From positions 1 to 58,664 of the IMG/VR virus record IMGVR_UViG_3300025096_000019: DNA of 58,664 bases; one strand, written 5' to 3'. The position numbers and the translations under genes are program-made. The notes beneath the pieces were generated by a model. That model did no database searches. It was not told the DNA's origin and was given only the letters and a program-made list of their open reading frames with translations. How positions within the stretch are numbered: the stretch's first letter is position 1; each line of letters opens with the position of its first letter. Below, piece by piece: positions 2,682 to 53,619 of this stretch. This stretch comes from a virus. Taxonomy: Duplodnaviria; Caudoviricetes.

Positions 2682-3107
2682 TTAAGGCATTGTGTGATCA
2701 ATATTTCCAGTAGTTAAAGATGGTTTACCGTAATGATCATCGAAGTGTAAGAGTAGCATAGCATAATGGATGACTTTCATCAAGTCTTTCTTTTCTTTTC
2801 CATCCTTACTTCCATACCTACTACCATACTTTATAATATTTGCCTGACAAAATCCAGAAGCAATGTCCCGTGCTGCCAATAAATCTAAGGTTTGAACCTT
2901 ACGATACTCATGACTAGTACCAGTGTAATGCCCTCTATAAGTAGAAGATACATAGGATTCAATATCCTTAAGTATCTCCTCTTCATGATATTTAAAATAA
3001 TGCGCTGCCATTTCTTTTTCTAATTCCTCCTTTTTCGATTGAACGTAATTTGCTTCATCATCAGGTCCGTACATAACGTCGTATAATAAACTCCATGAAT
3101 TAGTCAT
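2682..3107 (-). CDS. Conserved cyanophage hypothetical protein (DUF3310/SaV-like)
   Basis: GHY...GFCQANIIKYGSRYGSKDG...DLMKVIHYA pattern. Start moved to ATG 3107 (MTNSW) to minimise overlap with pebS. Confidence 0.75.
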   Translation of the reverse strand: MTNSWSLLYDVMYGPDDEANYVQSKKEELEKEMAAHYFKYHEEEILKDIESYVSSTYRGHYTGTSHEYRKVQTLDLLAARDIASGFCQANIIKYGSRYGSKDGKEKKDLMKVIHYAMLLLHFDDHYGKPSLTTGNIDHTMP

Positions 3108-3717
3108 AACAGAATAAAAACTCATCAATAAATGATCCTGTTTTCTCCTTTCCAAATTTTTGCGAAAGAAATCCAGCAACTGGATCCAACTTCTTCATAT
3201 ACTTATCAAAATCTGAATAGAAAGCAGTGTCTTCGCCAGTTGGTTTCTTACATTCTACCATATCTTTGAACTTAGTCAAGTATTTCTTAAACATATCAAG
3301 ATGTTCATCAACCTCAGATGGAGCACATTTAGCAACATAAATGTTTTCAGAAAAATGATTACCAGGTTCAAAAAACCTAATATTTCCTTCCTGTTTAGGC
3401 AATCCATCCACAGAAAACATATAATTTTCCACAGGGTGTTGATAATCAAAGACAATAATAACCTTCTTCTCAGAAAATTTCATCAAATCTACACCAAAAC
3501 ATGGAAGATTAGATCCAGTCTTAGGGTAAATGATAGTATTGTAAATATCACATCTAGAATCCCAAACCTCAGTCTCTCTCATCTTAATAAAATATGGATG
3601 AGTATAAAGATTTGCTCTCAATTCAGCACCATTAGAACTCCAGTTTGCCCACTGTTGAGTAAATGTTAAGTCAAAAGTATGACCTAACACTTCTTTATAA
3701 TTATTCCACAGATTCAT
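3100..3717 (-). CDS. pebS: Phycoerythrobilin synthase (ferredoxin-dependent bilin reductase)
   Basis: DIYNTIIYPKTG, LPCFGVDLMKFS, VFDYQHP, RFFEPGNHFS, FDKYMKKLDPV closely match cyanophage PebS as I recall it, with both catalytic Asp positions (GVD, LDPV). Start at 3717 (MNLW). Confidence 0.92.
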   Translation of the reverse strand: MNLWNNYKEVLGHTFDLTFTQQWANWSSNGAELRANLYTHPYFIKMRETEVWDSRCDIYNTIIYPKTGSNLPCFGVDLMKFSEKKVIIVFDYQHPVENYMFSVDGLPKQEGNIRFFEPGNHFSENIYVAKCAPSEVDEHLDMFKKYLTKFKDMVECKKPTGEDTAFYSDFDKYMKKLDPVAGFLSQKFGKEKTGSFIDEFLFCYD

Positions 3718-4816
3718 ATGCTTTATCCTCCGCCCTATCAAATTCGAAATCAGCATCTACTTTATCATACAATTCTAAAAAAGATTGTTTTGTTTCATCA
3801 TCAAAACGATTCACACACACTGCAATTGCTTTCTCCTTTTTACCAAAGATAGCATAAGCACGAATGATATGAACCAGACGACGAGTACTAATGATTTCAT
3901 CAATACCACCATCATAGAACGTTTTACGAATAATGTCAGCCCAATCAACTAATCGTTTACAGAAATCTTTATCATTTACGCCAACACTGTCAGCAACATT
4001 GAAAAGAATCTTCTGTTCAGCAGTAGGAGCAGGATAATCTTGCTCAAATGTTACAGGGAATCTTTCGAGGAAGGCTTCATTAAGCACGTTAGTTCCAATA
4101 AACCGTCCGTCGTCTGAACCTTTACCCTTAGTGTTTGCCGTTGCGATGATGTTGAATCCTTTTGCTGGTCTGATGAATTTTCCGATTTTTTTAATGAAAA
4201 CTCCATTACCTTCAAGGATCGACTGGAGGCAGAGGATTTTGTTACTGGCAAGGTCGATCTCGTCAAGGAGCAAGATACACCCCCGTTGTAAAGCTTCAAT
4301 GACTGGACCGTTGTGCCAGACTGTGGAACCGTCAACAAGGCGGAAGCCACCAATGAGATCATCTTCATCTGTTTCGATAGTAATGTTTACGCGGATAAGT
4401 TCTTTTTTGAGTTGGGAACAGGCTTGTTCGACACTAAACGTTTTACCGTTGCCTGAAAGGCCAGTAATGAATGTAGGGTAAAACAGATTGGCTTTGAGAA
4501 TGGTCTTAATATCGCTAAAAGGACCAAACTTGACGAAGGTATCATCTTTCTCTGGGATAAGGTTTTGTTGAATGCTGTGAGTAACGGCAGGAGCACTGAA
4601 TGATCTCTCAATCTGCTGTACGCTTTCTTTTGTTACTTCAAGGTTCCACTTACCTCTTCCAACTTTAAACTCCTCTAAACGACGAGTTACAGTCTGGTAG
4701 TTGATGCTACGAGAGGCACAGAACCCTTTAACATCGGCAGCAGTTATCTCAACACCGTAAAGAGACTGCAATTCAGTAAGTAAATGTTTATCAGTCAAAG
4801 CAATCTTACGAGGCAT
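3701..4816 (-). CDS. cobS: CobS-like / MoxR-family AAA+ ATPase
   Basis: Walker A GLSGNGKT, Walker B LLLDEID, TANTKG, NEAFLERF, ISTRRL; the standard T4-like cyanophage 'cobS'. Confidence 0.92.
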   Translation of the reverse strand: MPRKIALTDKHLLTELQSLYGVEITAADVKGFCASRSINYQTVTRRLEEFKVGRGKWNLEVTKESVQQIERSFSAPAVTHSIQQNLIPEKDDTFVKFGPFSDIKTILKANLFYPTFITGLSGNGKTFSVEQACSQLKKELIRVNITIETDEDDLIGGFRLVDGSTVWHNGPVIEALQRGCILLLDEIDLASNKILCLQSILEGNGVFIKKIGKFIRPAKGFNIIATANTKGKGSDDGRFIGTNVLNEAFLERFPVTFEQDYPAPTAEQKILFNVADSVGVNDKDFCKRLVDWADIIRKTFYDGGIDEIISTRRLVHIIRAYAIFGKKEKAIAVCVNRFDDETKQSFLELYDKVDADFEFDRAEDKAYESVE

Positions 4817-14555: not shown

Positions 14556-15965
14556 TTACATAAGGTTCTGAACCTTAACCCTACGATAGTAGCGGTTAGT
14601 GTTAGGTGTAAGAACACCAAGTCCCTGAGTTGTACCTTGTGAGAATGGGTTTTCAACCATACCATAACGAGTCTTAAACCCGATTTTTGGTTGGAAGGTG
14701 TTCTCGCCAACTGCACGAACCATCTGGAGAGGAACGTATGGGCAGTAGAAGAGTCCAGCATCATAAGGTGAGGAACCTTTGTATCCAGCAACGTAGTACT
14801 GATTAGCAGAACTATTTGCAGAATATGGGTCGATGTATACGCGATACTTACCTTGAAGTACACCAGCAAATGTATTGCCTGTGTCATCAACGTTAAGATT
14901 AGCGTTAAGTGCAGGAGTATAATCCAGAACACCAGCCATCGTTAGGGCGGAAGCAACGTCTGCGGAGCAGAGGATCATGTTGCCCTTTCCACGACGAGTC
15001 CTTTGTGCAATTGCGTTGGCATCGCGCTCGATTTGGAAAATAAGTCCCTTGAATTTCTCAACCGACCATCTGCCGTTTGAGTCTGTGTCGAGGTCGAAAG
15101 CACCAGCAGTAGCAGTGTTAACCTGAGCACCGGATTCAGCAACCTTATAGATTGTACGAATAACTTCGCGGTTGATTTCAGCAAGGATCTCTGTGGAGAG
15201 AATATTTGCTAATTCAGCCTCGGCGTTTAGTCCGTGAATTGCTTTAAGGTCCTGAGCAAGTTCTAGTGAGTACTCAGCTTTCAGAGCACGGGATTTCGCC
15301 GTAACGGTTACTTTCTCGATGCTGAATGCCATTTCGTTGAAATGGTCGCCAGTACCAGAACCAAGGTTCTCAGAAGAATCTGTACGCATACCCTGACCAA
15401 CAGGATAGGTTGTAGCAGTCTGTGAACCCTGTGGGTTAAGAGCACCTGGATTACCAGCACCTGTGAGTCCAGTACCACCTGTAGTACCTAAACCAACTGC
15501 GCCGTCAGTCCATCCGGTAGTAAGATTTCCACCATCATCCTGACCGGAGAAGGAAGTATCTGCTTCGTCGAATAGTGCTTCTGTTCCAGACTGATTCTCA
15601 TAGCGCGAGCGCATTGCGAAAATTAGTCCAGTAGGTCCGTTCATTGGCTGAACACCTGCTAGGTCATATGCGACCAAGTTAGGCATTGAGCGACGGATAA
15701 GGCTTATTAGAACGGGGTCAAAACCGGCTGTTGGACCTGCGTCAGCAGCGTCTGCACTAAAACCAGCATTTGAACCTGTAGCTGTGCTGTTTGTTGGAAC
15801 AGCTTCTGAAAGAAAAGAACGCTCTTCGCGGAGTGCTGTTTCCTGATTCTCCAGGAGAACGGCGGTTACCATTCTACGATGATTGTCTTTGATTGGATCA
15901 AGACCTTCGTAGTCTAGTAGAGGTGCCCACTTCTCCTGCAGATGTTCCTGATTGAACATTTGCAT
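14556..15965 (-). CDS. gp23: Major capsid protein
   Basis: KWAPLL, LLENQE, GVQPMNGPTGLIFAMR, TAKSRALKAEYSLELAQDLKAIHG, FQPKIGFKTRYG. Confidence 0.99.
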   Translation of the reverse strand: MQMFNQEHLQEKWAPLLDYEGLDPIKDNHRRMVTAVLLENQETALREERSFLSEAVPTNSTATGSNAGFSADAADAGPTAGFDPVLISLIRRSMPNLVAYDLAGVQPMNGPTGLIFAMRSRYENQSGTEALFDEADTSFSGQDDGGNLTTGWTDGAVGLGTTGGTGLTGAGNPGALNPQGSQTATTYPVGQGMRTDSSENLGSGTGDHFNEMAFSIEKVTVTAKSRALKAEYSLELAQDLKAIHGLNAEAELANILSTEILAEINREVIRTIYKVAESGAQVNTATAGAFDLDTDSNGRWSVEKFKGLIFQIERDANAIAQRTRRGKGNMILCSADVASALTMAGVLDYTPALNANLNVDDTGNTFAGVLQGKYRVYIDPYSANSSANQYYVAGYKGSSPYDAGLFYCPYVPLQMVRAVGENTFQPKIGFKTRYGMVENPFSQGTTQGLGVLTPNTNRYYRRVKVQNLM

Positions 15966-40140: not shown

Positions 40141-43100
40141 CTATGCTCCAAGATGTTCTCTTAATGCACCAAGACCTCTAAGACCCTCATCTCTCCGTTG
40201 AATTGTTGGATATGTGCTCAATCCAGAATCAACAGTTAGTCCTGTAACACCAATTGCAATGGCACCTGCTAGTCTAGTAATATTGTAGAATCTACCCCAT
40301 GATACATTACCAACTGGTGTAGAACCTGTGGTTCCAATACCAATAATAGGAGATGTGGAATCAACATTACATGTAATAATTCCAGCAGTAGAATCCCATG
40401 CACTAACATTATAAACATTATCTAAGAAAGTAACACCTATACCAATAACATCAGCATCTCTACTGTAAGTGGAAGTAGCACCAGCACCAATTGTAGTTCC
40501 TGAAACCAAAACTGGATATCCAGCAACTAAATTACCATATGCTACACCAGATTTTAAGATAAACTCAATACCTAATGCAGTACCTATACCAGAAGATTGT
40601 CTAATACCAGTAATAATACCAGTAAATCCTTGTATATTACCAACTACATCAATGTTCTCATAGTAAGTTTTGTTGGGATATGGTGCAAGAACTTGAGGTG
40701 GAGCAATAGTTGTATAACCAAAACCAGGATTTACAACAGTTGCAGAAGCGATTGATCCATTTGTAATTGTTGCAGTAGCAGTAGCAGTTGTCCCAATACC
40801 AACTCCAATAGCATGTGGTGCTGATATAGAGATAGATGTAGTTGCTCCAACGTATCCACTACCACCACTAGTAACATTAAGTGATGAAATAGTTCCAGCA
40901 GCAGAAACAACCGCAGTAAGTCCTGCAACAACAGGGGAAGATCCATCAATAATTATTGATCCAAAATCAGCAGTTGTTATGCTTGTATTTGGATCATTTT
41001 CTTCATATTTGAAGAATTGAGCATCATCAACAAATAATTGAGTATCAGTAGTTGAAAAGTCTCTAATAATCTTAGCAGTTGGATAAACTTGGGGTTCAAT
41101 CGATAATCTTGTCTTATAAACAGCTTCTCCATTAACAAATCCATCTACCTTCTGTTTGGTCCATTCTAGACCTCTAAAGATACTCTCATCAATACCATTA
41201 CCATCATACAAATTAGTTTCAATACTATCAGACGAAGCAACAGTAAATACTGTTCTTAAACCCTGTGTTGTGGTTATCCCATTTGAACCATCAGTCTTAT
41301 GAACTCTTACTACATCACCAGACTTAATTGATGGATTAATATTAGTAACTAAATTGCTATCACTACCACTAGTTCCTCTATAGAAGAATATTGAAACCTT
41401 ATCTTTTGGATTTGGTGCAACTGTAAAGTCGAAAGATGTTCCTCCTGTAAATGTATATGCATCACCAGGAACTTGAAGAACACCATTAATAAAGATCAAT
41501 AATAACTGATCCAACTCAATTAATGATGACTCTGGATCATTTGCATCAATTTCAAAACTTAACAATTCACCATTATAATTAAGTGGATATCTCTTTCTAT
41601 TGCCATCTTGTAGATCCACAACAGAATCAATATAATCAAATTCACCAAAGTTCCAAGAAGAGAACCTATCATTAAATGTATCAAGAACAGTAAGTTCAAA
41701 TGGTTCTCTAAAAATACCTACTCCTCTATCCGTTGGAATCCCAACAGGTGTCATTACATCTCCAATCTCATATCCAAATCCAGATCTAGTAATCTTGAAG
41801 GATTTAACTTCATGCAATGCAAGATCGCTAGGAGTTCTTGATGGAACAGTTGAATTACCAATAGCAACCGTAACAATACCAACTAATGTATGAATTGCTG
41901 AGGCAACAGTTGCACATGCAGGAGTACCTGATTGGTCTATTGTAATACTATTATCAACTACCTGAGTTCTTGTAGTAAGTGCAGTATCAGATACTCCAAC
42001 ATTAATAGTAATTAAATCATTACTTCCACTCTTAGAAGTTGCTGCAACCGCAACATTTACATTGTAATATGGATCTGTTGTGCGTGGATAAGAATGATTA
42101 GTAGCATTATTATCTCTATCACATTTAAATGTTAATCCACCAGATGAAATTCCAATGACATTTTGTGCTTTTGATAATCCACTTGTAGTCGCAGAATCAA
42201 AGTAGTGAGTTGATATGTCAGGAGAGATACCAATATTAACTCTAAACGTATTAGTAGTCTTATTAGAAATTTGTACCCAAGTTCTGCGGAATGGATCATT
42301 TAATCTTGGATATGTATGTTTAGTAGCACGTCCATCAGCATCACATTCAAATGCTAATGAATTATCAGCAAATTTAACCCAATCACCATTTTCGAATCCA
42401 TGATTGGCAATAGTGACTGTCATAATACCCGAAGTTGGGGTATAATCAGCATCAGTTACTGTATGGAAGTTTGGTCCATTAACACGATATATGTTATTTG
42501 GAATTGTTAGTACCAAATCACCCGTACCTGCATCGTAAGTGGCAGTAGAAGGGGTGGTAGTACCAATTCCAACTCCAGCATCATTCTTCATGTATAGGGC
42601 AGTAGAAGCGGCACTTACAAAGGTGTGTGTATACTGAGCAGCTGTTTGTGCGGAAATCTTTTCATTTCTCATTGCCTGAGTGGCCATAGTAGCCGCCTCT
42701 CTCATAGCATAGATTACTTGCTCCTCTTCACCTTCAACTGGTGGAGCAGCTCCTGGTGCAGCATATGTACCACCTAATGATTGATGCAAGTAAAGTTTTG
42801 CTGCATCAACGGTCATATCATTACCACCATATCTCAAGTTGTGTGCCGTTGCTTCAAGAACGTCTACAACATCATCAATACAATCTTGCTCAGTAAATCC
42901 ACCTGGATAACTATATGAAGTGAATTTATCCTTCATTCTTCTTGCAGAAAGATCACCAATAAAGAGTTTATTCTTCTCTATAAGATCTGCTGCATCACTA
43001 AACTTATTATCTGACCCTACTCCACTATTAGGTCCAACCTCTAATGATACTAATAGACTACTACCAGTATCAGTTGTAGCACCTATACCTAACCTAGATA

Positions 43101-46100
43101 CGCCACTTAAAGGAATATTATCATAAGATGGTTGTGGAACAATAACAACAGGATCAATATATCTAGTACCACCTGCTGCAATATTCAATGTATGTAATGT
43201 TCCACCTGCACCAACACTTGCAGTAATATTTGCACCAGCACCAGATCCTCCACCAGTTCCAACACCAACTGAGAAAGTATCATCATCTATTATAGTAATT
43301 GTTAAATTATTTCCATTAGCAGCAGGATCTGTTGATCTTGGATAAGTGTGTTGTGTTGCATGAAAATCTCTTGAACATGTAAATGTTAATGAATTATTAA
43401 CAAGTTGAACATTACCACCACTTCTTCCATGATTTGGAATTGTTAGAACTAATATACCAGTCTTTGCAGTATATTGTGCATTCGTAGGAGTAAATGGACC
43501 ACCAGTACCAGTAACAGCACCACTTGATGCACTTACAAAAGTATGGTCATATGCTATATCTGTTACTCCAATAGCAACAGTTGATCCCATATAACCAGAT
43601 CCATATCCATAAGGACTTGTAGTTCCCCATCCAACCGCATTAATTACGCCACTAGCATTTATCCCAACAGTTATTCCAGCACCAACAAGAGGAGCAATAC
43701 CTAAACCACCAGTAGAACCTAATGAAACAATTACTCCACCTCTAGGTAACTGATTTAAGTTTACATCAGTTTGACTTTGAATTACATCCCCATTGGTAGA
43801 ACTAATTCCAGTAAATACAACACTAGATATTCCAGGATTACCACCCTCGATATACTCATAATTATTTCCAGCATTATTAATAGTACTAGGTCTCTGGAAC
43901 ATTCCATTAATAAGAACAATACTACTTCCAGTTTGAATTCCAGTAGTATTAGCTCCACCAACACTTACTCTATATGTTTGACCAATTCCAGTAAATTCAC
44001 TAGAAATATCATCATATATCTTATTAGCAGAATAATCATTCCTTAAATAAACTCTTCCAGAAAATGTAGATCTAGGATAATCAAGATTAGAACTATTCTT
44101 AGTGGAAACAGGATTACCTTTTGGTGGATCAGTAAAGTGAATCTTACTTCCAACAATATTATATGATCCAGTATATACTCTAATAGCAGTATTTCTTGCA
44201 TGTGTAGAAGCAGTTGATCCAACAACTCCTCTTTCTACTTTTATTATGTTCTCACTTCCAAATCCGGATATTGGTCCAACAGTTGTACTACCAATACCAA
44301 CAGATATAACCTTCATATATTCATCTTCTACTTTCAACAAATTACCAGTTGTAATAGATGAAATTCCAGCAACACCAAATATTGACGATCCAGCAGAAAT
44401 TTGAGCACCATTATTGGGAGATATAGTAGTGTTTACTGGACTATATGCTATTGGTGATTGGATTATTCCATCAACAGTAAGAAGACTCTTCTCAAGTCTC
44501 TTATCCATTGTAAATGAATGAGCATTACCAGTACCAATACCAGAGAAAGTTATTGCAGTTCCTGCTAATGCATTTGCTCTTGTTGTTGCAACTTTAAAGA
44601 CATCCTTATTAGTTTTTATTGCATATACTGTTGCTGGAAGATTTGCTGCACCAGCAACCTGGATTGCACTACCAGTGATTCCAGCATAAGTTGAAGTATA
44701 ACTATATGTTAATTTCTCACCAGTATTGAAGAAATGATCGGGAAGATTAAAGTTTCCTGCTGTAGCACCAACCGATACTGTTCCTGGATCGAATGTCTTC
44801 TGGAATACTGGTACACTATTATGAGTCAGATCAAACTCTGTTCTATTAATTCTTGCACCATTCTTAGAATTATATTCCATTAATGATAGTGATTCAATAA
44901 TAGATCCATAAACCAAAACAGGAGGAGTATTTAAATCATCACTAGCATCATAAATTATCTCGTCAAATCTCTGTACATCCACAGATTGACCATTAATATC
45001 AGAAGCAGGATTAAATTGTAAGAATAATCCATTATTATTCAATTGTGGTACTAAATTACCCATACCACCAGTATGTCCAATTGAAAGAATTGGATACTCT
45101 GTCAAATAAACATTCGAACCATCATGCAACATTAATGATTGATGAATAGCAATAGTTGATCCAGAAGAAACCCTTACAGTACTCTTAACAACAGATACAT
45201 CAGAAGAGTTAATACCAACTACAGAACCAACCGCAGTACCATGACTTGCAGACGCAATATTATAATAATTAGACTCTAATCTTAATGATTTCTCAGTTCC
45301 AGCAAGTTGATTTACTGCTTTAAATCTATATGTTCCTATTCCAACAGCAGTTGTACCAAATCCAACAACTTTTGACCTAACTAAAATCTCATCAGATGTA
45401 TCATTATAATAATCCAGTGAAAGTACACCAGAATCTATCTTAGAAGTAAATGTCCCTATAAAATTAGATGAATATCCATTTGATTCCTGAGTGTCAGTAT
45501 AATAATCAGATGTATAAGAATTTGTTCCATCATGAGTAATTAACATCTCAACAAGATTTTTATCACCTGCTGTTGCATTAACAACCTCAATAGATGCAAA
45601 ATATGAATTTAAATTTGTAATTGGATCTGCAATAATTTCAGCAGTTGATCCAACACCAACAACTCTATTAACACCAGTTAAATCAATAAATCCAAAAGAT
45701 TCTGTTCCTATACCTGCAAGATCATTAATAAATTTATTTTCATAAACTTTAATATCATAATCAGTAGTGAACTCATCCTTAGGTAAAAATCTTAAAGTAC
45801 GGACACCATTGCTTATATCCCCAGTTACTTGACCTAGTTCTTCTGTAGTATTATACAGATTTGCCTTTTCTAAGGAGAATCCATCATTAGCATCACCATA
45901 TGTGATTAATTCTGTAATCTGGATATCATTACTATTAGGATCCTTAACCTGAACCAAGAATCTAGAATATTCATCATTTATTGAAATTTCTGTATATGGT
46001 AGTTGTGTTTCATCAGATTTAGAGAATTTAGAACTAATATCATCCAAATCTAATACTCTATTGGTATCACATTGGATATAATCTGATAATTTAATACTAT

Positions 46101-49100
46101 TAAACTTAATAAACTTGGATCTATTATTTCTTGAATCTTTATCAACAACTAAATCAAGATTATTAATAGTATCTACTCTCTTTTCATCTATTATATCTCT
46201 AACAATATTAGTAGCATTTGTATTGGATCCAATTCCTGCACTTGTAGAAGAAGTTATTCCAACATCAGCAAAATTCTTAAGACCACTAGTATGAAGTAAA
46301 CGATTTACAGGATTAACTAAATTTTCATACGTAATTGGACTCTTAACAGTATAAGATAAATTCTGATAGTAATCATTATCGGGCAATCTCTGGAAATCTT
46401 CACCCAACTTACCAGTATCAGTTTTCCATCCTTTATCTTGTCTTAAAGAATAATCAATATCGAATCTAGCAAAGTTATTAGTAAGAGTATTAACAGTAGC
46501 AACAGATCCACTAGCAGCACCTCTTATGACATCATTTTTTGTAAGTCTATAAGTACCTGAAACCTTAATTGAATCATTTTCAATAGCAGTTACTACAAGA
46601 TCAACGTTACTGTACTGTCCATTTAAGAAAACTGATAGATATTCACCAATTTGGAAAGGTGTAGAACTTTGTACTGTTGTGAATTTTGGATAATTATTAT
46701 AATTTACAACAGATGCATATGATTGCTGATTTGTAATAGCAACACCAGGATGAGTGGTGATAGATGATAAATCAAATTCTAATTCTGCTGGATTTGTATT
46801 TCTATACTCACTTATAGTAAAGAACTTATATCCATTATCAACTGAATTATATCCAGTTCCATAATCACTATCTTTTACGATTCCTTCTACAAAAATCTTA
46901 TCATTAGTAGCAAATGGTGCTGTGACCGTTGTAAATCCTGATATAGGTGTAACTAGAACACAAGTTACAACACCAGTCTGAGCACCAGTCTGAGGTCCTG
47001 TAACGGTCTGAATAGTAACACCATTACTATTATTAACTGTAAGTATTGTTTGTTCAAGAGAAGTTAATCCTTTTGGTGATGCAATTACTTCAACAGATTT
47101 GATTGAAGTTCCATATAAATTAGCTTCTAGTATCCCACTAATGTCTTTCTTACCAGTTTCTGGATCAACAACAATAACATTAGGAGCAGTAAGATAATTC
47201 TTACCACCATCTAAAACATCAACAGACTCAATTGTAGTTGAATCAATTAAAGAAACTAATGGTGGAACATATGCTTCTGGTCTTAAAGTCTTATCAGATG
47301 CATACTCAAACCCTGGATCCTGAATCCTAACACTATCAATTCTACTAATAGTAGTAGATTGTGGTAAAACTTCAGCATCTTTTCCATTAGTAGATGCAAT
47401 ACTTACTAAAGTTGGAAGTCGTTTATATCCAAATCCACCAAAACCAATATTAATTCTCTCTACACCACCTCTTGCAGATTTTGCCTTAGTAAGATATTTT
47501 AGAGTATCTGTATTAGATGTTGTATATGAAAGATTTTCTGGTACTTCTCTCAATGAAACACTAAAATTAGTCTCATCTACACCAAATATTGAATAATTAT
47601 CGTTATATGTACTATCAATATAATTAATATTGGAGTAATTAGAAACATCAGTATCACTAGTACTAATATATCCAGATTTTGCGAGAGTATAATATAGATT
47701 TACTGGATTATCAGCAGAATAATTTAAAGTTAATGTATTAGGAGTTCCAACTACAACAAAAGTATCTGTTGAACCAGTTGAAACAAATTCATTCTTAAAG
47801 TCAGCATCATAGAATAATTTCAGAGAATAATCAGAAAGTGAACTATGTGATAGATCAAATACTAAATTATTATTATTAATTACTGAAATTTGTGGGTTTA
47901 TTAAAGATAGTCTTTGTGCAGAACCACCCTTTGTAGTAAGATCAATAACAGTAGGTGGATATTTTACAACATCAGAATTTGTTTCCCCTAATTTAATATT
48001 AGAATCATCTATTCTATAAACATAGTATGACTCAGAATGTGCCAATCCAACGGCATTAATATTAGCACTATAGAATACTTTATCACCTGTTTTTAACGCA
48101 TGGTTAGGGATAGTTATAATATCTGTATGAGTATTAATTCCAGATGCAGCAAAACTTAATGGGTTAATAAGTAATCTATCTTTTAATGAACTGTACTCTA
48201 ATCTTACTGCTGTTGACGTACCAATACCAACAGTATTAGTAGGATTAAATATTAATTCAACTTCATCTAAATTAGATAAGTTGTGTGCAGTAGAAACAGC
48301 AACTTTTGAAGTAATTTTTTGAACATTTCCAGTTATTTGAGCAAACTGCGATTCCAAAGAATATTCAAAATTATCACCACCACCCGTAATGAAGAATAAA
48401 CCATTGGTATTTGTAGTTAATCCAACCTGAGTTGTAACTCCAATATAATGATCAGACTTATTAATAATATAAAGATCTATTTCATTACCAGAAATTGGAA
48501 TACCAAACGTAGTTCCACCAGCTGCTTTTTCGGGAGTTTCTGCTACTGTCAGATTAGTATTTAATTTTCTTGTGAATTTTACCTTCTGATTTGTCTTAAA
48601 TGGGTGATTTGGTAGATATATGCTCTGAGATGGAATCGAAACAGCATCCATGGATGCACCAACAGTGTAATTACGTGTTGTACTTACACCAACATCGGTT
48701 CCTACACCAACAGATTCCTGAGGATTGAAATAAACAATTTCATTAATTTGGGACTCAATAGGAAGAGATTTAAGAGGAATAGAGAAGTAACTTGGAATTA
48801 AATCAACAAAAGTTGATACTGTATGTGCAGTTGCAGTAATACCTCTCTTAACTCTTAGAATATTCTTCTGATCAAATACATTAATGACTGATAATTTCTC
48901 AGTTCCAATACCAATACTACTTCCAACTGATACTGACTGAGGTATTTTTGCAACATAAATGTCAGTTACAAGTCCAACAGCAGCGGTAAGATTAGCAGCA
49001 ACTTCCTTATAAAGAACAGTTCTACCAGTATCTACCCCTATTCTATGAGATCCTGTAAGTGATTTAACATCAGTAGTCAATCCAGATATTACCACATTAT

Positions 49101-52100
49101 CATCACTAAGAAGATTATGTGAAGTTGAAATATATCCAGAAACTTGATTTGCATTATCATAAACAAAGACCACATTCTGATCTGTTTCTACACTGGTATC
49201 AACACTAGTAATTGACTTACCAGTTACAGTATCTACAAATGCATTTAATCCACCACCATTAGTACCAGTATTATCAAATTTAAACTGATCACCAACAGCA
49301 TATCCAGTACCCTTCTCAATGATCTGGAAAGAATCCACAGATCCCTTAGTAACAGAATCAACAATTGATACTTGATCAATATATTCATTAGATTCAACTA
49401 TAAAGTCATTATCTGCATATGGGTCAGATACTTTATATGGGAACGTATTTCTAATTAAATTTGATTCATTAAAATCAAAATTAGTCTGATCTATTAAGAA
49501 ATTATCTTCAACAGGAATTGATCTATAGGTATCTCCAATGAAATATGGGAATTTTGGTTCCAAATCACCAGATTGGGTAAGAGAAGTTATTCCTACAAAA
49601 TATGCATATACACCATCTGGATAATCACCAGTTTTACAGAATCTACCATTACTTTCATCAAGATCTCCGGATGCATCAAATTTGTAATCCTCAACAAAAA
49701 ATCCATCACCAAATCCTGATGGTCTATCAACAACATTTAGAGTATTATCAACATATCCAGTATCTAGAATTTTTATACGAGAATCCTTATCTGCTGGATC
49801 GGTATATCCATATGGACCATAAATTGGATTTCCATCATATGCCCATCCAATAATTGGTGAGTGATTGTTTGCCTTATCATTAAAATACTGATCACCAATA
49901 GCAGTTGAATATCCAACACTAGAATATTTTAAAATATCTCCATTTTCTTCTAGAATATTATTTCCACCAAATCGTTTGAATTTATTAATACTCAAACCCC
50001 TAATATTCGCTTCTAATAATGCATTCAATCCAGCTGGATTTACTTTAATAGAAGTCTTATCTTCAGTATAATTAACACCACTATTCAATATAATAACTTC
50101 AGTAATCACACCAGCAGTAACTACTGCCCTCAATTTAGCACCAATACCATCACCTTGAACTTCTAAATCAGGAGCAGAAGTATAATCTTCACCACCTGTT
50201 TGAATATCAATAGCAGTAATAGATCCACTAGTTGTCCCAATACCTACCGAATTATTTGTAATAATTGGTTTTAATTGGGCATTCTTACCATTCTTAATTA
50301 AGATTGTTGGTTTTTTCTCAAAATTGAGAACAGTACTTCCATAACCAGTACCAACTTCATATGTTTGAACATCAACAATTGGTCCACGAACAATAGGAGT
50401 AGCAGTTATTCCTGTCGTTCTTCCTGCTGCCACAGGAGAATATTCAACATCAATATTTAATTCAATATTTGGATATTTAAATGTATGCCAAGCAGTAATA
50501 CTCGTTCCAGTAATATATGTGGGAACAGCATCAAATCTAACATAATTACCTCGTTCATAATTTGATGTTATTGTTCCACCAACCCCAGCATTAGCAAGTC
50601 TGAATGAATTATCATCAATTTTAATAACTTGATAATGAACAGTACTTGTTGAAAATCCTGAATGTGATACTAATCCCGACATAGATTGAGAGGTTGTGTA
50701 CCAAACTTTCTCACCATCATTAAATCCATGATTATCGAAAGTAATTATATTTGAAGAAGTGGAAATACCACTTGCTTTAACGTTTATTACTCTATTTTCA
50801 TATCCACTTCCTGGATTTAATACTTTAATTGATTCTAATGTATTTTTTGGTTCAAAAAGTCTAAATTTATGAATACCATATGTACCTATTGTAGTAAATC
50901 CAACTGTATTAATTCCAGCAGTATAATCAGAAGAGGTTGCATATAACTGAACTGTGTTTATACCAACAACTTTTGGATAGTAAACATTGCCATCTTCTAA
51001 CCAAGTACCTTGATTTGTATTATTACCTTTAAATACCCCTATTCCAAGTTTATCATTTCCATTCTTATCATAAACAAGAGCTTGGCCATTTGCAAGATTA
51101 TGAACTTGTTGGAAAGTTAAAACTTCATTATTGATATCAACTCCACCACCTTGAGTTGTTATTCTTGCATCAAATGTTAGTTCTCTATATCTTTTAGGAA
51201 TCTGAGCTTCTAAACTACATCCATTACCATTACCACCAGTAATAGTTACTGATAATACCTTTTCAATATCAAAATCCTGAGGATCGACTTGTACTTCTAA
51301 TACATTACCTCTAACAGAAGGATTCGATAAAGAAGTCGTTCCCATTGCAGGACTTGCAATAGTAATAGTTGGAGGATTAAGTATATCATAATTAGATCCA
51401 CCATTCAATAAATCAATACCTGTTAATGGACCATAATAAATTTTATCATCAGACTTATAATTTGTTATCTCAACACCATTTTTTAAAAGTCCAACACCAC
51501 CAGGTACAGTTTTAGTAGCTGATCCAGATTTAATATTCGAATTTATTGGGAATTTTTTAAGTAGTTGTTGAGATCCTACCTTTTTACCTTTATGTACTGC
51601 CAGATAGAAAGTCTGTTTACCATTTCCAGGAGAAAGAGGTTTAAATTCAACATATCCATCAGCATGTATAAAGGATCTTGAAGTGTATAACTTAATCTGA
51701 TTACTATTAGGTAATACTCTTACATAATAAATCCCTTCTTCTAATCCATTAATTGGAGTACTTTCTGGTGAATAGTATACTTCATCTCCTGTAATAAATG
51801 GTACAGCACTAGGAAAGGATATAATTGACCATTTTTGTGTATTACCATCAAATCCTTGAATAGAAGATCCAGATGCATCTGCTATTTCAGCAAACGAAAT
51901 GTTCTCATTAATAGCATATGAAGGTAGTGAATTGGAAGCAACGTATATGTTCTCATCTCTATCATTATAAACATTCTGAACATCAGAAGTTAATATATTA
52001 TTTCCAAATTGTAGGTCTGCACCTGTACTAACTGCTCTCTTTAAAGATCTTCTTAAATCATACTTTATACCATATGTGGGGGTCCAACCCTGCAAGTTGT

Positions 52101-53619
52101 CTAGATCTACTGTTTTCTTATTCCTATCAATAGATCTTATTACTGCATCAATTACAACAGATACATCTCCAACTAGAATATCTACAGTATCAAATTCGCC
52201 TAATGTAGGTTCTGTAATATCAGAGTATAATGTAAAGGTTGATCCACTTATATCTTTAATATTGTACCTAGAAGCAGTATTATAGATCCAACAGTTAGCA
52301 AGAATTTCCTTATTAGTTCTTAATCCCTCAGTAGGATTAGGAATGGCCTCCCCCACATTTTGTACTAAGATCCTTTCTCCTTCATTAGTTAACTTAATAT
52401 CGGAAATAGGAACAAATTTTGATAGAACACCAGTAATTCTTAATTCTACCTTTTCATTTAAATCACCATCTTCATATCCAAATATAACTTCATCAGATCT
52501 TAGATCAGTACCAATACCAATTGGATTAATAATATTAGTACAATTTAGGAATTGGTTAATAGTTTTACTAGTATATGATACTTCAGTATTAACTCCACAA
52601 ATAACTGTACCAGTATTACCAAATCCAATTGTAGAATCTACTGTAATAACAGATCCACCAGTGGCTACATCACCAATAACTCTTGTTTTTCCTGGTATAG
52701 TAAATGTACCTTCAATAAGATCTCTATCATTATATCCAACAAATAAACCTAATTTATAAAATACCTTTCCTTTTCTACTAAATGTCTCAACTTCCGATAC
52801 AGATGCATAAGTTCCACTATCAGTAGACTTAGTAATAGTCTGTCCTACTAAGTTCTTAGGGTTACCAGAAATTCTTTCTGCAACTATAACTTCTCTTCGA
52901 ATATAATCTGCTGCTGATGGTTTAATTAAATACTGTTCAAGATCAATTATCTTTGGATCAACACCAAATAATACATTAAATAAGATTCTAAATGATTCTT
53001 CTGTTCCTTTTGATAGGTATAACGACTTGGATTCTTTAATAAAATTACTAACATCCAGACTTTCTACAAAATCTACGTCTTCTAATCCAGGTGTTAAGTT
53101 AAATTTAAACTTTTTATAAAATTCTTTTAAGAATAATGCACTTAAATTTTGAACTTTTGACCCAGTAACATGAGTTGCTGCATTAGAAGTTGAAAAAACT
53201 AATTCTTTTGGTGCATTTGGTGCATGATAAGTCGTAATTCCACTAAAACCACGTTCACATCCAGTAAAACTATTAGTTGTTATGCCAGTATATGTGAAGA
53301 TTTCATCATTAATCTTGAAAAGACCATACTGATTTGGAAATCCTTTGGTACTAGCAACATCTATAGTAGTATTAGTTGTTGTAATTCCAACAGAAAGAGT
53401 AGTTCCATCACCAATTACTTCAGGAGTTAAATTATCTAATTTTAGATATTGATCTAAATTGTCAGCAATATCAATAGGACCACCTTGATATTCCTGCGAA
53501 ATGTAATATTGCTTTAAAAAATCAGCAGCTTTTGGACTCTCAGATAATACGAATTCTGGAAGCTGATTCTCAATAATCTGCTGAACTTTTACTTTGGTAT
53601 CAAACCCAGTTGAAATCAT
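40141..53619 (-). CDS. gp7: Baseplate wedge initiator gp7-like, 4492-aa multidomain protein
   Basis: Between gp6 and gp8; NQLPEFV, YLSKGT, DNDYYQNLSY...LLHTSGLKNF; carries many inserted domains. Confidence 0.88.
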   Translation of the reverse strand: MISTGFDTKVKVQQIIENQLPEFVLSESPKAADFLKQYYISQEYQGGPIDIADNLDQYLKLDNLTPEVIGDGTTLSVGITTTNTTIDVASTKGFPNQYGLFKINDEIFTYTGITTNSFTGCERGFSGITTYHAPNAPKELVFSTSNAATHVTGSKVQNLSALFLKEFYKKFKFNLTPGLEDVDFVESLDVSNFIKESKSLYLSKGTEESFRILFNVLFGVDPKIIDLEQYLIKPSAADYIRREVIVAERISGNPKNLVGQTITKSTDSGTYASVSEVETFSRKGKVFYKLGLFVGYNDRDLIEGTFTIPGKTRVIGDVATGGSVITVDSTIGFGNTGTVICGVNTEVSYTSKTINQFLNCTNIINPIGIGTDLRSDEVIFGYEDGDLNEKVELRITGVLSKFVPISDIKLTNEGERILVQNVGEAIPNPTEGLRTNKEILANCWIYNTASRYNIKDISGSTFTLYSDITEPTLGEFDTVDILVGDVSVVIDAVIRSIDRNKKTVDLDNLQGWTPTYGIKYDLRRSLKRAVSTGADLQFGNNILTSDVQNVYNDRDENIYVASNSLPSYAINENISFAEIADASGSSIQGFDGNTQKWSIISFPSAVPFITGDEVYYSPESTPINGLEEGIYYVRVLPNSNQIKLYTSRSFIHADGYVEFKPLSPGNGKQTFYLAVHKGKKVGSQQLLKKFPINSNIKSGSATKTVPGGVGLLKNGVEITNYKSDDKIYYGPLTGIDLLNGGSNYDILNPPTITIASPAMGTTSLSNPSVRGNVLEVQVDPQDFDIEKVLSVTITGGNGNGCSLEAQIPKRYRELTFDARITTQGGGVDINNEVLTFQQVHNLANGQALVYDKNGNDKLGIGVFKGNNTNQGTWLEDGNVYYPKVVGINTVQLYATSSDYTAGINTVGFTTIGTYGIHKFRLFEPKNTLESIKVLNPGSGYENRVINVKASGISTSSNIITFDNHGFNDGEKVWYTTSQSMSGLVSHSGFSTSTVHYQVIKIDDNSFRLANAGVGGTITSNYERGNYVRFDAVPTYITGTSITAWHTFKYPNIELNIDVEYSPVAAGRTTGITATPIVRGPIVDVQTYEVGTGYGSTVLNFEKKPTILIKNGKNAQLKPIITNNSVGIGTTSGSITAIDIQTGGEDYTSAPDLEVQGDGIGAKLRAVVTAGVITEVIILNSGVNYTEDKTSIKVNPAGLNALLEANIRGLSINKFKRFGGNNILEENGDILKYSSVGYSTAIGDQYFNDKANNHSPIIGWAYDGNPIYGPYGYTDPADKDSRIKILDTGYVDNTLNVVDRPSGFGDGFFVEDYKFDASGDLDESNGRFCKTGDYPDGVYAYFVGITSLTQSGDLEPKFPYFIGDTYRSIPVEDNFLIDQTNFDFNESNLIRNTFPYKVSDPYADNDFIVESNEYIDQVSIVDSVTKGSVDSFQIIEKGTGYAVGDQFKFDNTGTNGGGLNAFVDTVTGKSITSVDTSVETDQNVVFVYDNANQVSGYISTSHNLLSDDNVVISGLTTDVKSLTGSHRIGVDTGRTVLYKEVAANLTAAVGLVTDIYVAKIPQSVSVGSSIGIGTEKLSVINVFDQKNILRVKRGITATAHTVSTFVDLIPSYFSIPLKSLPIESQINEIVYFNPQESVGVGTDVGVSTTRNYTVGASMDAVSIPSQSIYLPNHPFKTNQKVKFTRKLNTNLTVAETPEKAAGGTTFGIPISGNEIDLYIINKSDHYIGVTTQVGLTTNTNGLFFITGGGDNFEYSLESQFAQITGNVQKITSKVAVSTAHNLSNLDEVELIFNPTNTVGIGTSTAVRLEYSSLKDRLLINPLSFAASGINTHTDIITIPNHALKTGDKVFYSANINAVGLAHSESYYVYRIDDSNIKLGETNSDVVKYPPTVIDLTTKGGSAQRLSLINPQISVINNNNLVFDLSHSSLSDYSLKLFYDADFKNEFVSTGSTDTFVVVGTPNTLTLNYSADNPVNLYYTLAKSGYISTSDTDVSNYSNINYIDSTYNDNYSIFGVDETNFSVSLREVPENLSYTTSNTDTLKYLTKAKSARGGVERINIGFGGFGYKRLPTLVSIASTNGKDAEVLPQSTTISRIDSVRIQDPGFEYASDKTLRPEAYVPPLVSLIDSTTIESVDVLDGGKNYLTAPNVIVVDPETGKKDISGILEANLYGTSIKSVEVIASPKGLTSLEQTILTVNNSNGVTIQTVTGPQTGAQTGVVTCVLVTPISGFTTVTAPFATNDKIFVEGIVKDSDYGTGYNSVDNGYKFFTISEYRNTNPAELEFDLSSITTHPGVAITNQQSYASVVNYNNYPKFTTVQSSTPFQIGEYLSVFLNGQYSNVDLVVTAIENDSIKVSGTYRLTKNDVIRGAASGSVATVNTLTNNFARFDIDYSLRQDKGWKTDTGKLGEDFQRLPDNDYYQNLSYTVKSPITYENLVNPVNRLLHTSGLKNFADVGITSSTSAGIGSNTNATNIVRDIIDEKRVDTINNLDLVVDKDSRNNRSKFIKFNSIKLSDYIQCDTNRVLDLDDISSKFSKSDETQLPYTEISINDEYSRFLVQVKDPNSNDIQITELITYGDANDGFSLEKANLYNTTEELGQVTGDISNGVRTLRFLPKDEFTTDYDIKVYENKFINDLAGIGTESFGFIDLTGVNRVVGVGSTAEIIADPITNLNSYFASIEVVNATAGDKNLVEMLITHDGTNSYTSDYYTDTQESNGYSSNFIGTFTSKIDSGVLSLDYYNDTSDEILVRSKVVGFGTTAVGIGTYRFKAVNQLAGTEKSLRLESNYYNIASASHGTAVGSVVGINSSDVSVVKSTVRVSSGSTIAIHQSLMLHDGSNVYLTEYPILSIGHTGGMGNLVPQLNNNGLFLQFNPASDINGQSVDVQRFDEIIYDASDDLNTPPVLVYGSIIESLSLMEYNSKNGARINRTEFDLTHNSVPVFQKTFDPGTVSVGATAGNFNLPDHFFNTGEKLTYSYTSTYAGITGSAIQVAGAANLPATVYAIKTNKDVFKVATTRANALAGTAITFSGIGTGNAHSFTMDKRLEKSLLTVDGIIQSPIAYSPVNTTISPNNGAQISAGSSIFGVAGISSITTGNLLKVEDEYMKVISVGIGSTTVGPISGFGSENIIKVERGVVGSTASTHARNTAIRVYTGSYNIVGSKIHFTDPPKGNPVSTKNSSNLDYPRSTFSGRVYLRNDYSANKIYDDISSEFTGIGQTYRVSVGGANTTGIQTGSSIVLINGMFQRPSTINNAGNNYEYIEGGNPGISSVVFTGISSTNGDVIQSQTDVNLNQLPRGGVIVSLGSTGGLGIAPLVGAGITVGINASGVINAVGWGTTSPYGYGSGYMGSTVAIGVTDIAYDHTFVSASSGAVTGTGGPFTPTNAQYTAKTGILVLTIPNHGRSGGNVQLVNNSLTFTCSRDFHATQHTYPRSTDPAANGNNLTITIIDDDTFSVGVGTGGGSGAGANITASVGAGGTLHTLNIAAGGTRYIDPVVIVPQPSYDNIPLSGVSRLGIGATTDTGSSLLVSLEVGPNSGVGSDNKFSDAADLIEKNKLFIGDLSARRMKDKFTSYSYPGGFTEQDCIDDVVDVLEATAHNLRYGGNDMTVDAAKLYLHQSLGGTYAAPGAAPPVEGEEEQVIYAMREAATMATQAMRNEKISAQTAAQYTHTFVSAASTALYMKNDAGVGIGTTTPSTATYDAGTGDLVLTIPNNIYRVNGPNFHTVTDADYTPTSGIMTVTIANHGFENGDWVKFADNSLAFECDADGRATKHTYPRLNDPFRRTWVQISNKTTNTFRVNIGISPDISTHYFDSATTSGLSKAQNVIGISSGGLTFKCDRDNNATNHSYPRTTDPYYNVNVAVAATSKSGSNDLITINVGVSDTALTTRTQVVDNSITIDQSGTPACATVASAIHTLVGIVTVAIGNSTVPSRTPSDLALHEVKSFKITRSGFGYEIGDVMTPVGIPTDRGVGIFREPFELTVLDTFNDRFSSWNFGEFDYIDSVVDLQDGNRKRYPLNYNGELLSFEIDANDPESSLIELDQLLLIFINGVLQVPGDAYTFTGGTSFDFTVAPNPKDKVSIFFYRGTSGSDSNLVTNINPSIKSGDVVRVHKTDGSNGITTTQGLRTVFTVASSDSIETNLYDGNGIDESIFRGLEWTKQKVDGFVNGEAVYKTRLSIEPQVYPTAKIIRDFSTTDTQLFVDDAQFFKYEENDPNTSITTADFGSIIIDGSSPVVAGLTAVVSAAGTISSLNVTSGGSGYVGATTSISISAPHAIGVGIGTTATATATITNGSIASATVVNPGFGYTTIAPPQVLAPYPNKTYYENIDVVGNIQGFTGIITGIRQSSGIGTALGIEFILKSGVAYGNLVAGYPVLVSGTTIGAGATSTYSRDADVIGIGVTFLDNVYNVSAWDSTAGIITCNVDSTSPIIGIGTTGSTPVGNVSWGRFYNITRLAGAIAIGVTGLTVDSGLSTYPTIQRRDEGLRGLGALREHLGA

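Follow-up and report, generated by a model that had tools for sequence, protein, structure and literature searches.

Why cyanophages carry bilin genes, and why many cyanomyoviruses adsorb only in light, are questions that have been open for 15-20 years. The role of the phage pcyA and pebS genes was called 'a mystery' and that of cpeT 'unresolved' (Sullivan et al. 2010, PMC3037559). A locus that may bear on both questions lies in a 58,664-nucleotide (nt) stretch of virus DNA, IMG/VR record IMGVR_UViG_3300025096_000019, analysed here at its full length and referred to below as the window. This stretch is a fragment of a T4-like cyanophage (CheckV estimate 29%). A first-pass annotation, made from the letters of the window alone, had placed a phycobiliprotein-like globin domain with two bilin-site cysteines inside a giant gp7-like baseplate wedge protein, in a phage that also encodes PebS. 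Hence the locus raises the question of whether a baseplate protein contains a light-harvesting fold, and whether this fold could still hold a pigment. The domain, both of its cysteines and its restriction to phages of phototrophs stood up to analysis and the proposed link to PebS did not. We report that two segments of the protein form a single split domain of the phycobiliprotein superfamily, which belongs to a large family of cyanophage virion modules, and we weigh the possibility that these modules bind bilins.

One phycobiliprotein-superfamily domain split by two beta-rich repeats

The domain and its parts were located as follows, in window coordinates and with lengths in amino acids (aa), the carrier being an open reading frame (ORF) and the helix scores coming from hidden Markov models (HMMs):

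40141..53619, minus strand: giant baseplate wedge (gp7-like) ORF of 4492 aa, from the ORF list and its translation (phrog_2885)
42643..43011, minus strand: phycobiliprotein-like module, residues 3537-3659, whose four helices correspond to A/B, E, F and G (module HMM, 140 bits)
42994..43008, minus strand: Asn3538 and Asp3542, at the beta-Asn35 and beta-Asp39 positions in the register of the HMMER alignment to PDB chains
42871..42882, minus strand: Cys3580-Ile-Asp3582-Asp3583, a Cys82-like site with the Asp85-like residue at +3 and Asp in place of Arg84
41968..42636, minus strand: two beta-rich repeats, about residues 3662-3884, each with T-F-x-C ... H-x-Y-P-R-x-x-D-P (phrog_5342, phrog_1276)
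41845..41967, minus strand: linker strand and helix H equivalent, residues 3885-3925, with Cys3902 at the helix start (H-helix HMM, 48 bits)

The best PHROG for the ORF was phrog_2885, 'baseplate wedge subunit' (3675 bits, residues 2-3453), and both this profile match along the protein and its position within a T4-like gene set place it in the gp7 type; the window also encodes homologues of the T4 proteins gp44, gp45, gp46, gp47, gp55 and UvsW. Positions 41857-43002, to which the first-pass annotation had drawn attention, correspond to residues 3540-3921, and in the translation the two cysteines that it named are Cys3580 (codon 42880-42882) and Cys3902 (codon 41914-41916). The helical island that it had noticed within the beta-rich gp7 proved to be one copy of a module of about 110 aa, and the module HMM detected this single copy in the window.

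Taken on its own, the window copy counts against a relationship to phycobiliproteins: residues 3530-3670 matched no Pfam family at E ≤ 10, and PF00502 had no match at E ≤ 10 in the six-frame translation of the window. A phmmer search of the PDB with the window copy returned only a serine protease (E 0.35), which we judged to be a chance match. As judged from profile comparisons, a significant sequence relationship holds for the module family and not for the window copy singly. Profile A1, built from 45 module copies with the window copy first, was searched against 177,635 PDB sequences and gave 159 matches at E ≤ 10, the best 60 of which were all phycobiliproteins (top E 3.6e-6). Positions 4-64 of this profile align with beta-chain residues 33-100, the cysteine falling on Cys82 and the aspartate on Asp85, and Cys3580 with its Asp at +3 is thereby in register with the beta-82 position to which it had been assigned by eye. 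Profile A3, which was built from 42 units of IMG/VR loci only and is independent of A1, gave 59 PDB matches at E ≤ 1, all of them phycobiliproteins (best E 0.0037). Two homologues with a precomputed PF00502 label exceed the 22.2-bit cut-off of that family (P0010, 27.8 bits; P0085, 31.2 bits), and their matches fall on copies that BLASTP aligns to the window copy at 29-38% identity. PF00502 is also matched at E ≤ 0.01 by ten of the 45 copies in A1, the window copy not among them; these match no other family. The HMMER alignments of the module family to phycobiliproteins end after helix E.

The remaining helices were assessed from predicted structures. With A1 as input, AlphaFold2 gave a four-helix module (helices at model residues 4-30, 42-62, 66-76 and 97-115) with a predicted local distance difference test (pLDDT) value of 90 and a predicted template-modelling score of 0.84. 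When the module alone was compared with 48,161 chains by VIA-align, bilin-binding globins took ranks 1-9 and 11 (Z 8.4-10.8), among them photocobilin (10.8), phycoerythrin beta (10.2), ApcE (10.1) and the allophycocyanins (9.8-10.2), and sensor globins scored near Z 7. A model of residues 3530-3944 had a mean pLDDT of 66, with the module above 90, a helix at positions 372-393 of the 415 aa at 89-97, and the two beta repeats poorly modelled at 29-44 and 37-42. When this helix was included as helix H, the Z score against phycoerythrin beta went up from 10.2 to 14.9, with 152 residues aligned (model 1-392 against chain 22-184); the top eight matches were then all phycobiliproteins (Z 10.6-14.9), with sensor globins at 9.9 or less. 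The predictions agree with a globin-like fold comprising helices A, B, E, F, G and H, and together with A1 they bear out the phycobiliprotein-like globin fold proposed in the first-pass annotation. Helical models can reach a Z of about 14 by arrangement alone, a caveat of the VIA comparison that tells against this assignment, and for this reason we treat the fold evidence as supportive and let the sequence profiles carry the weight.

The structural results also bear on a different explanation, in which the module is a generic non-haem sensor globin, resembling the N-terminal domain of RsbR, or a helical bundle, and resembles phycobiliproteins through convergence or by chance. Its nearest ESM Atlas clusters are indeed non-haem sensor globins (RsbRD_N, 0.87-0.88), stressosome and globin-coupled sensor domains reach Z 7-9.9, and a Foldseek search of the PDB with the module model gave nothing at E ≤ 0.001, the top rows having E 0.2-2. 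Those top rows are nearly all phycobiliproteins (best template-modelling score 0.70, root-mean-square deviation 3.2), and the Atlas scores lie under that resource's own lead threshold of 0.9, so we retain the Atlas result as support for a predicted globin-type fold only. The two independent profiles match phycobiliproteins only (the best 60 of 159 for A1, all 59 for A3), two homologues pass the curated PF00502 cut-off, inclusion of helix H puts the phycobiliproteins as much as 5 Z units ahead, and the motifs are in register at the first bilin site and appear to be so at the second. A sensor globin or chance resemblance is therefore hardly credible.

The second conserved element, around Cys3902, consists of a short strand followed by P-x-C-A-x-V-A-S-A-I-x-T-L. 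In at least 17 units this Cys helix comes immediately after the module (gap -10 to +18 aa); the other gaps, of about 95, 200, 313, 418, 536 and 620 aa, correspond to one to six beta repeats. Contiguous units of module and Cys helix numbered 83 and occurred in 57 of 68 IMG/VR loci, and two orthologues (L002 and L003, 58% identity) have the architecture of the window copy with both cysteines kept. In the model, Cys3902 begins the helix that superposes on helix H; its match to beta-153/155 is one of helices, with no alignment at the level of residues. The beta repeats can be placed as an insertion in the G-H loop, since many relatives have the Cys helix right behind the module and this helix matches helix H, and the suggestion of the first-pass annotation that the Cys3902 helix continues the domain after an insert is upheld by the contiguous units and the superposition. 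Residues 3537-3659 and 3885-3925 are thus one phycobiliprotein-superfamily domain, split by two beta repeats in its G-H loop.

A cyanophage-restricted family of virion modules

The family was delineated from 247 proteins gathered with residues 3530-3944 as query. An island HMM located 389 module copies in 94 of these proteins, with 1-23 copies per protein and a period of about 110 aa. The carriers, of which a single one can have up to 23 tandem modules, are virion, tail-fibre and baseplate proteins of marine cyanophages. The module consensus includes an Asn in the first helix, K-C-x-R-D, D-A ... D-L-x-Y-G-G-N and a Tyr, and copies are only 25-30% identical to one another. Tandem arrays such as that of P0185 are made of four-helix units without helix H, with one Cys per unit.

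The distribution of the module was examined by tblastn with three different module copies against 50,697 phage records. These matched 320, 98 and 315 records, and names containing Synechococcus, Prochlorococcus or cyanophage accounted for 320/320, 97/98 and 314/315, the remaining record for the second and third queries being named 'Marine'. A pattern scan of one genome per species in 185,579 species found one locus, on a 26.6-kb contig of a marine metagenome-assembled genome (MAG). The first-pass annotation had asked whether the domain is equally common in phages of non-phototrophs; it was found only in cyanophage records, bar the record named 'Marine' in each of two queries, and among the carriers is a siphovirus, S-SKS1. 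We conclude that the modules form a large family restricted to cyanophages. The 26.6-kb MAG contig (NZRR01000014.1, locus L070, from a MAG labelled Methanobacteriota) and the protein P0052 (labelled Euryarchaeota) represent module-bearing 'baseplate wedge' genes in archaeal MAGs, both most likely on misbinned cyanophage contigs. The use of psbA as a cyanophage marker was uninformative, with 2 of 50 IMG/VR records positive and the records 6-58% complete except for one at 96%. The record behind locus L069 (G039) has psbA in three pieces at 171043-171916, with one TGA and one TAG in its frames, and may hold an interrupted gene (e.g. with an intron) or a broken one.

Among 25 complete phage genomes, A1 detected the module in 21 and A3 in the same 21; a degenerate DNA pattern for the Cys helix matched 3 of the 25, which was too strict, and A3 was used in its place. 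The counts obtained with A1 include 19 in S-WAM2, 16 in S-RSM4, 13 in S-PM2, 9 in Syn1 and 6 each in P-HM1 and P-HM2. Neither profile found a module in P-SSM2, S-SM2, S-SSM7 or the podovirus P-SSP7. The gp23 of the window (14556-15965, minus strand) is 86% identical to the major capsid protein of P-SSM2, and in a gp23 tree the window phage is sister to P-SSM2 in a clade with S-SM2 and S-SSM7 (support 100/100). The window has the module and these three clade mates are without it; within this region P-SSM2 and S-SSM7 match the beta repeats and nothing else, which indicates that the module is an accessory gained or lost within the clade.

The beta repeat itself, of about 95-100 aa with T-F-x-C-x-x-D ... 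H-x-Y-P-R-x-x-D-P, occurs at least three times in the baseplate protein (Cys3415, Cys3759 and Cys3833), in residues of about 3380-3470 and 3662-3884 (window 41968-42636 and about 43100-43500, minus strand). It has a weak match to PF16190 (E1_FCCH) and strong matches to phrog_5342 and phrog_1276, and its conserved Cys, Asp and His could form a metal site. This repeat is very widespread: 577 representative proteins were reached at E ≤ 0.001, mostly via this part. Elsewhere in the same protein, residues 1248-1343 (window 49591-49878, minus strand) form a YHYH domain, PF14240 (E 2.6e-23).

Other forms of the module were also observed. Mini-repeats of about 40 aa, containing the first module helix only (profile positions 2-44), occur in tandem and adjoin full modules in S-PM2 (NC_006820, 56041-56415 and 166201-166323), S-RSM4 (NC_013085, 172594-172974) and S-WAM2 (NC_031935, 21572-21952 and 88522-88773). 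Degenerate units in which the helix-H Cys survives but the Cys82-like Cys and its Asp at +3 do not were found at L023:9718-10230, at L031:1316-1837 and in residues 586-750 of P0069. Both termini of P0223 (251 aa) resemble translated sequencing adapter, which makes it a fragment with artefactual ends.

Bilin-site residues, bilin genes and light-dependent adsorption

Conservation was measured over 502 unique copies in three classes, namely tandem modules without helix H, other modules and modules with helix H. In this order, the Cys82-like residue is present in 100%, 95% and 97% of copies, the Asp85-like residue in 100%, 99% and 97%, and the Arg84-like residue at +2 in 92%, 77% and 53%. The helix-H Cys is invariant in 42 of 42 A3 units, and both cysteines are thus conserved in homologues, a point on which the first-pass annotation had made its proposal depend. 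The Asp39-like residue is present in 25% (n = 64), 58% (n = 144) and 98% (n = 109) of the three classes, a contrast that is not phylogenetically independent since the classes are also subfamilies. In phycocyanin, the pyrrole nitrogens of the beta-155 bilin are hydrogen-bonded to beta-Asp39, its propionate bonds beta-Asn35, and the alpha partner holds its ring D (PMC6614406). In the family alignments, we show that the most conserved residues correspond, putatively at the second site, to those that hold both bilins of the phycobiliprotein beta chain, and from this pattern both bilin sites are presumed to be functional.

We tentatively favour the reading that this split phycobiliprotein-family domain still binds a bilin in the infected cell and that the pigment is carried on the virion; such an outcome is quite possible, and we stop a little short of calling it probable. 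Within the infected cell the domain would covalently bind either phycoerythrobilin or phycocyanobilin, which would come from the host or from the activity of phage PebS or PcyA. Attachment could be autocatalytic, as in ApcE, or could proceed via lyases. ApcE attaches its bilin autocatalytically (PMC2327270), which shows that attachment without a lyase has a precedent. If a lyase is involved, the phage T-type enzyme CpeT, which is widespread, would be the obvious candidate at the Cys155-like site. The assembled virion would then bear the pigment and, more speculatively, the pigmented modules would make the adsorption apparatus responsive to light.

Conservation is the sole ground for inferring bilin binding, and several features of the module weigh against a bound pigment. 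At +2 from Cys3580 the window copy has Asp3582 and not Arg, as the first-pass annotation had cautioned, and Asp occupies this position in 35% of the helix-H modules, the window copy included. In phycobiliproteins, Arg84 binds a bilin propionate. The N-terminal X-Y helices are absent, the alignments beginning at phycobiliprotein residue 22-33, which confirms the other caution of the first-pass annotation. In the A1 alignment, the stretch ahead of Cys82 is also about 7 residues shorter in the module family than in phycobiliproteins. The module has neither an alpha partner nor X-Y helices, and arrays of at least 20 tandem modules resemble rod building blocks. Tandem modules abut one another, leaving no room for X-Y helices, and with these helices missing nothing points to an alpha-beta heterodimer or to assembly into rings. 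With no X-Y helices, with Arg84 replaced and with no direct PF00502 match, the module is not a canonical phycobiliprotein subunit.

The same features would suit a fold that was captured from a host phycobiliprotein gene and now serves, free of pigment, as a rigid helical block of the baseplate or fibre, its conserved residues being needed for packing, folding or assembly. Such a block would explain the arrays in which up to 23 modules follow one another about every 110 aa, the free mixing with beta repeats (0 to 6 in the G-H loop), the dispensability of the module in P-SSM2 and S-SSM7, which keep the beta repeats without it, the replaced Arg84 of the window copy and the missing X-Y helices and stretch before Cys82; nor did searches of the open full-text literature turn up a report of pigmented virions. 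It explains less well why a lone Cys is kept in 95-100% of copies that are 25-30% identical, which would be unusual for packing. A disulphide was considered as the reason for this conservation and rejected, as there is one Cys per tandem unit. The conserved residues moreover fall on positions of bilin ligands, at the second site putatively, and only units with the Cys155-like helix maintain the Asp39-like residue. We regard a pigment-free block as a credible alternative that falls on the doubtful side.

The bilin genes also bear on a bound pigment. The window encodes one of them outside the domain, as genomic context:

3100..3756, minus strand: PebS-type ferredoxin-dependent bilin reductase ORF, 218 aa (PF05996)

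Its PF05996 scores of 61.6 and 63.2 bits (cut-off 31) are comparable to those of P-SSM2 (65.2), P-HM2 (59.3), P-HM1 (58.2) and S-SSM7 (56.4), in line with the earlier statement that this phage encodes PebS. The ORF shares 80 nt with one neighbour, a DUF3310 ORF (2682-3179, TTG start), and 56 nt with the other, a CbbQ/NorQ-type AAA ATPase ORF (3701-4816), all within 2682-4816 on the minus strand. The co-occurrence test proposed in the first-pass annotation gave different answers for the two kinds of gene. PF05996 bilin reductases occur in 8 of the 25 complete genomes, and the module is present in 6 of these 8 and in 15 of the 17 genomes without a reductase; PebS-type scores occur in four of the sampled genomes, of which P-SSM2 and S-SSM7 have no module. 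A link between PebS and the module, as the first-pass annotation had suggested, is accordingly rejected, and this result is a further point against a pigmented module.

The result for CpeT (PF06206) was positive and weak. CpeT was found in 18 of the 25 genomes, all 18 of which carry the module, and in none of the four module-less genomes (Fisher one-sided p 0.0028). Full-length forms (frames of 183-197 aa, 120-144 bits) occur in S-PM2, S-RSM4, S-WAM2, S-CAM3 and Syn1, which have 6-19 modules, and short divergent forms with two weak halves (134-160 aa, with 190 and 224 aa in two) occur in 13 genomes with 3-8 modules. On the opposite side, S-ShM2, P-SSM7 and S-SKS1 have the module without CpeT, and the three module-less, CpeT-less myoviruses belong to one gp23 clade (100/100) that includes the window phage, so that the association may reflect a single event. 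CpeT and haem oxygenase were not found in the window, nor CpeT in two related fragments, all of which are incomplete records and uninformative on this point. A link between CpeT and the module is hence suggested but weak. A tighter link of CpeT to the units with helix H was considered and rejected, such units being present also in those three CpeT-negative genomes that have the module. The phage CpeT is reported to bind phycoerythrobilin tightly, with no direct transfer to a host beta subunit.

The preserved bilin sites, the co-occurrence with CpeT and this reported behaviour of CpeT would also fit a role confined to the infected cell, in which the domain binds bilins or bilin-handling proteins there rather than on free particles. 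It might take up or carry bilins, or lyases or phycobilisome components might dock on it during assembly. The carriers are annotated as virion structural, baseplate and tail-fibre proteins, and their copies per cell would be too few for a metabolic sink. We consider such an intracellular role very unlikely.

For a pigment on the virion, light-dependent adsorption is the phenotype of interest. In the adsorption data of one study, darkness prevents adsorption of P-HM1 and P-HM2, lowers that of P-SSM2 without abolishing it and still permits that of P-SSP7, and S-PM2 depends on light, but not on photosynthesis, to adsorb; light-sensitive receptors or tail fibres were proposed there as the cause (Liu et al. 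2019, PMC6628666). The light-dependent phages P-HM1, P-HM2 and S-PM2 have 6, 6 and 13 modules, and the dark-adsorbing P-SSM2 and P-SSP7 have none. Presence of the module thus agrees with light-dependent adsorption in 5 of 5 phages; this is a lead and not a test, as only five phages are compared, two of which are near-identical and two of which come from module-less lineages.

A virion that is pigmented and responsive to light, with CpeT as loading enzyme, is speculative. That baseplates and fibres hold pigmented photoreceptor modules, that CpeT loads the Cys155-like site and that the bilin lets light gate adsorption are claims that we think unlikely to be true jointly. If they were, they would explain the light-dependent adsorption of S-PM2, P-HM1 and P-HM2 as well as the presence of cpeT and bilin-synthesis genes in phages. 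A module in baseplate and fibre proteins with both putative bilin sites under strong selection is a candidate, testable by mutation, for both questions posed at the outset. It would be a clear case of a host light-harvesting fold captured and rebuilt as part of a virion and, if pigmented, the first virus particle with its own chromophore. We found no prior description of a phycobiliprotein-like phage domain in a search of the full-text literature confined largely to open articles, and an earlier mention elsewhere is possible.

Comparison with known systems

The carrier is comparable to T4 gp7 and its cyanophage homologues (phrog_2885) in being a gp7-like wedge subunit, and the gp7 of P-HM2 likewise holds modules. 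It differs from T4-type gp7 in that the phycobiliprotein-like module is an accessory; P-SSM2 and S-SSM7, the nearest sampled phages, match the beta repeats alone.

With the phycobiliprotein beta subunits CpcB and CpeB (PF00502), the phage domain shares the Cys82-x-x-Asp85 motif of helix E, in register, the Asn35-like and Asp39-like residues, an insertion site in the G-H loop and a predicted globin-like fold with helices A/B, E, F, G and H, which scores Z 14.9 against phycoerythrin beta. A further Cys, with which helix H begins, may correspond to the one at beta-153/155. However, identity to the module is only 12-19%, the module is without X-Y helices and has about 7 residues fewer ahead of its Cys82-like Cys, the window copy has Asp in place of Arg84, and the insertion in the G-H loop of the phage protein consists of about 220 aa of beta repeats. 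Instead of forming a separate subunit, the modules are embedded, in 1-23 copies, in virion proteins of several thousand residues.

The photocobilin bilin-binding globin (8j2y_B, 8j2w_B) is the top VIA match of the four-helix module (Z 10.8) and, from its entry titles, is a bilin-binding globin that serves light sensing rather than harvesting. It is a domain of a cellular B12 photoreceptor, with 6% identity and no match at the sequence level. ApcE (4xxi_A) likewise has a phycobiliprotein-type domain within a much larger multi-domain protein, and this domain matches that of the phage with a Z of 10.1 when the module alone is compared and of 12.2 when helix H is added (root-mean-square deviation 2.1-2.4). 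ApcE is a cellular component of the phycobilisome that keeps its allophycocyanin contacts, whereas the phage module resides in virion proteins and often has a second Cys site.

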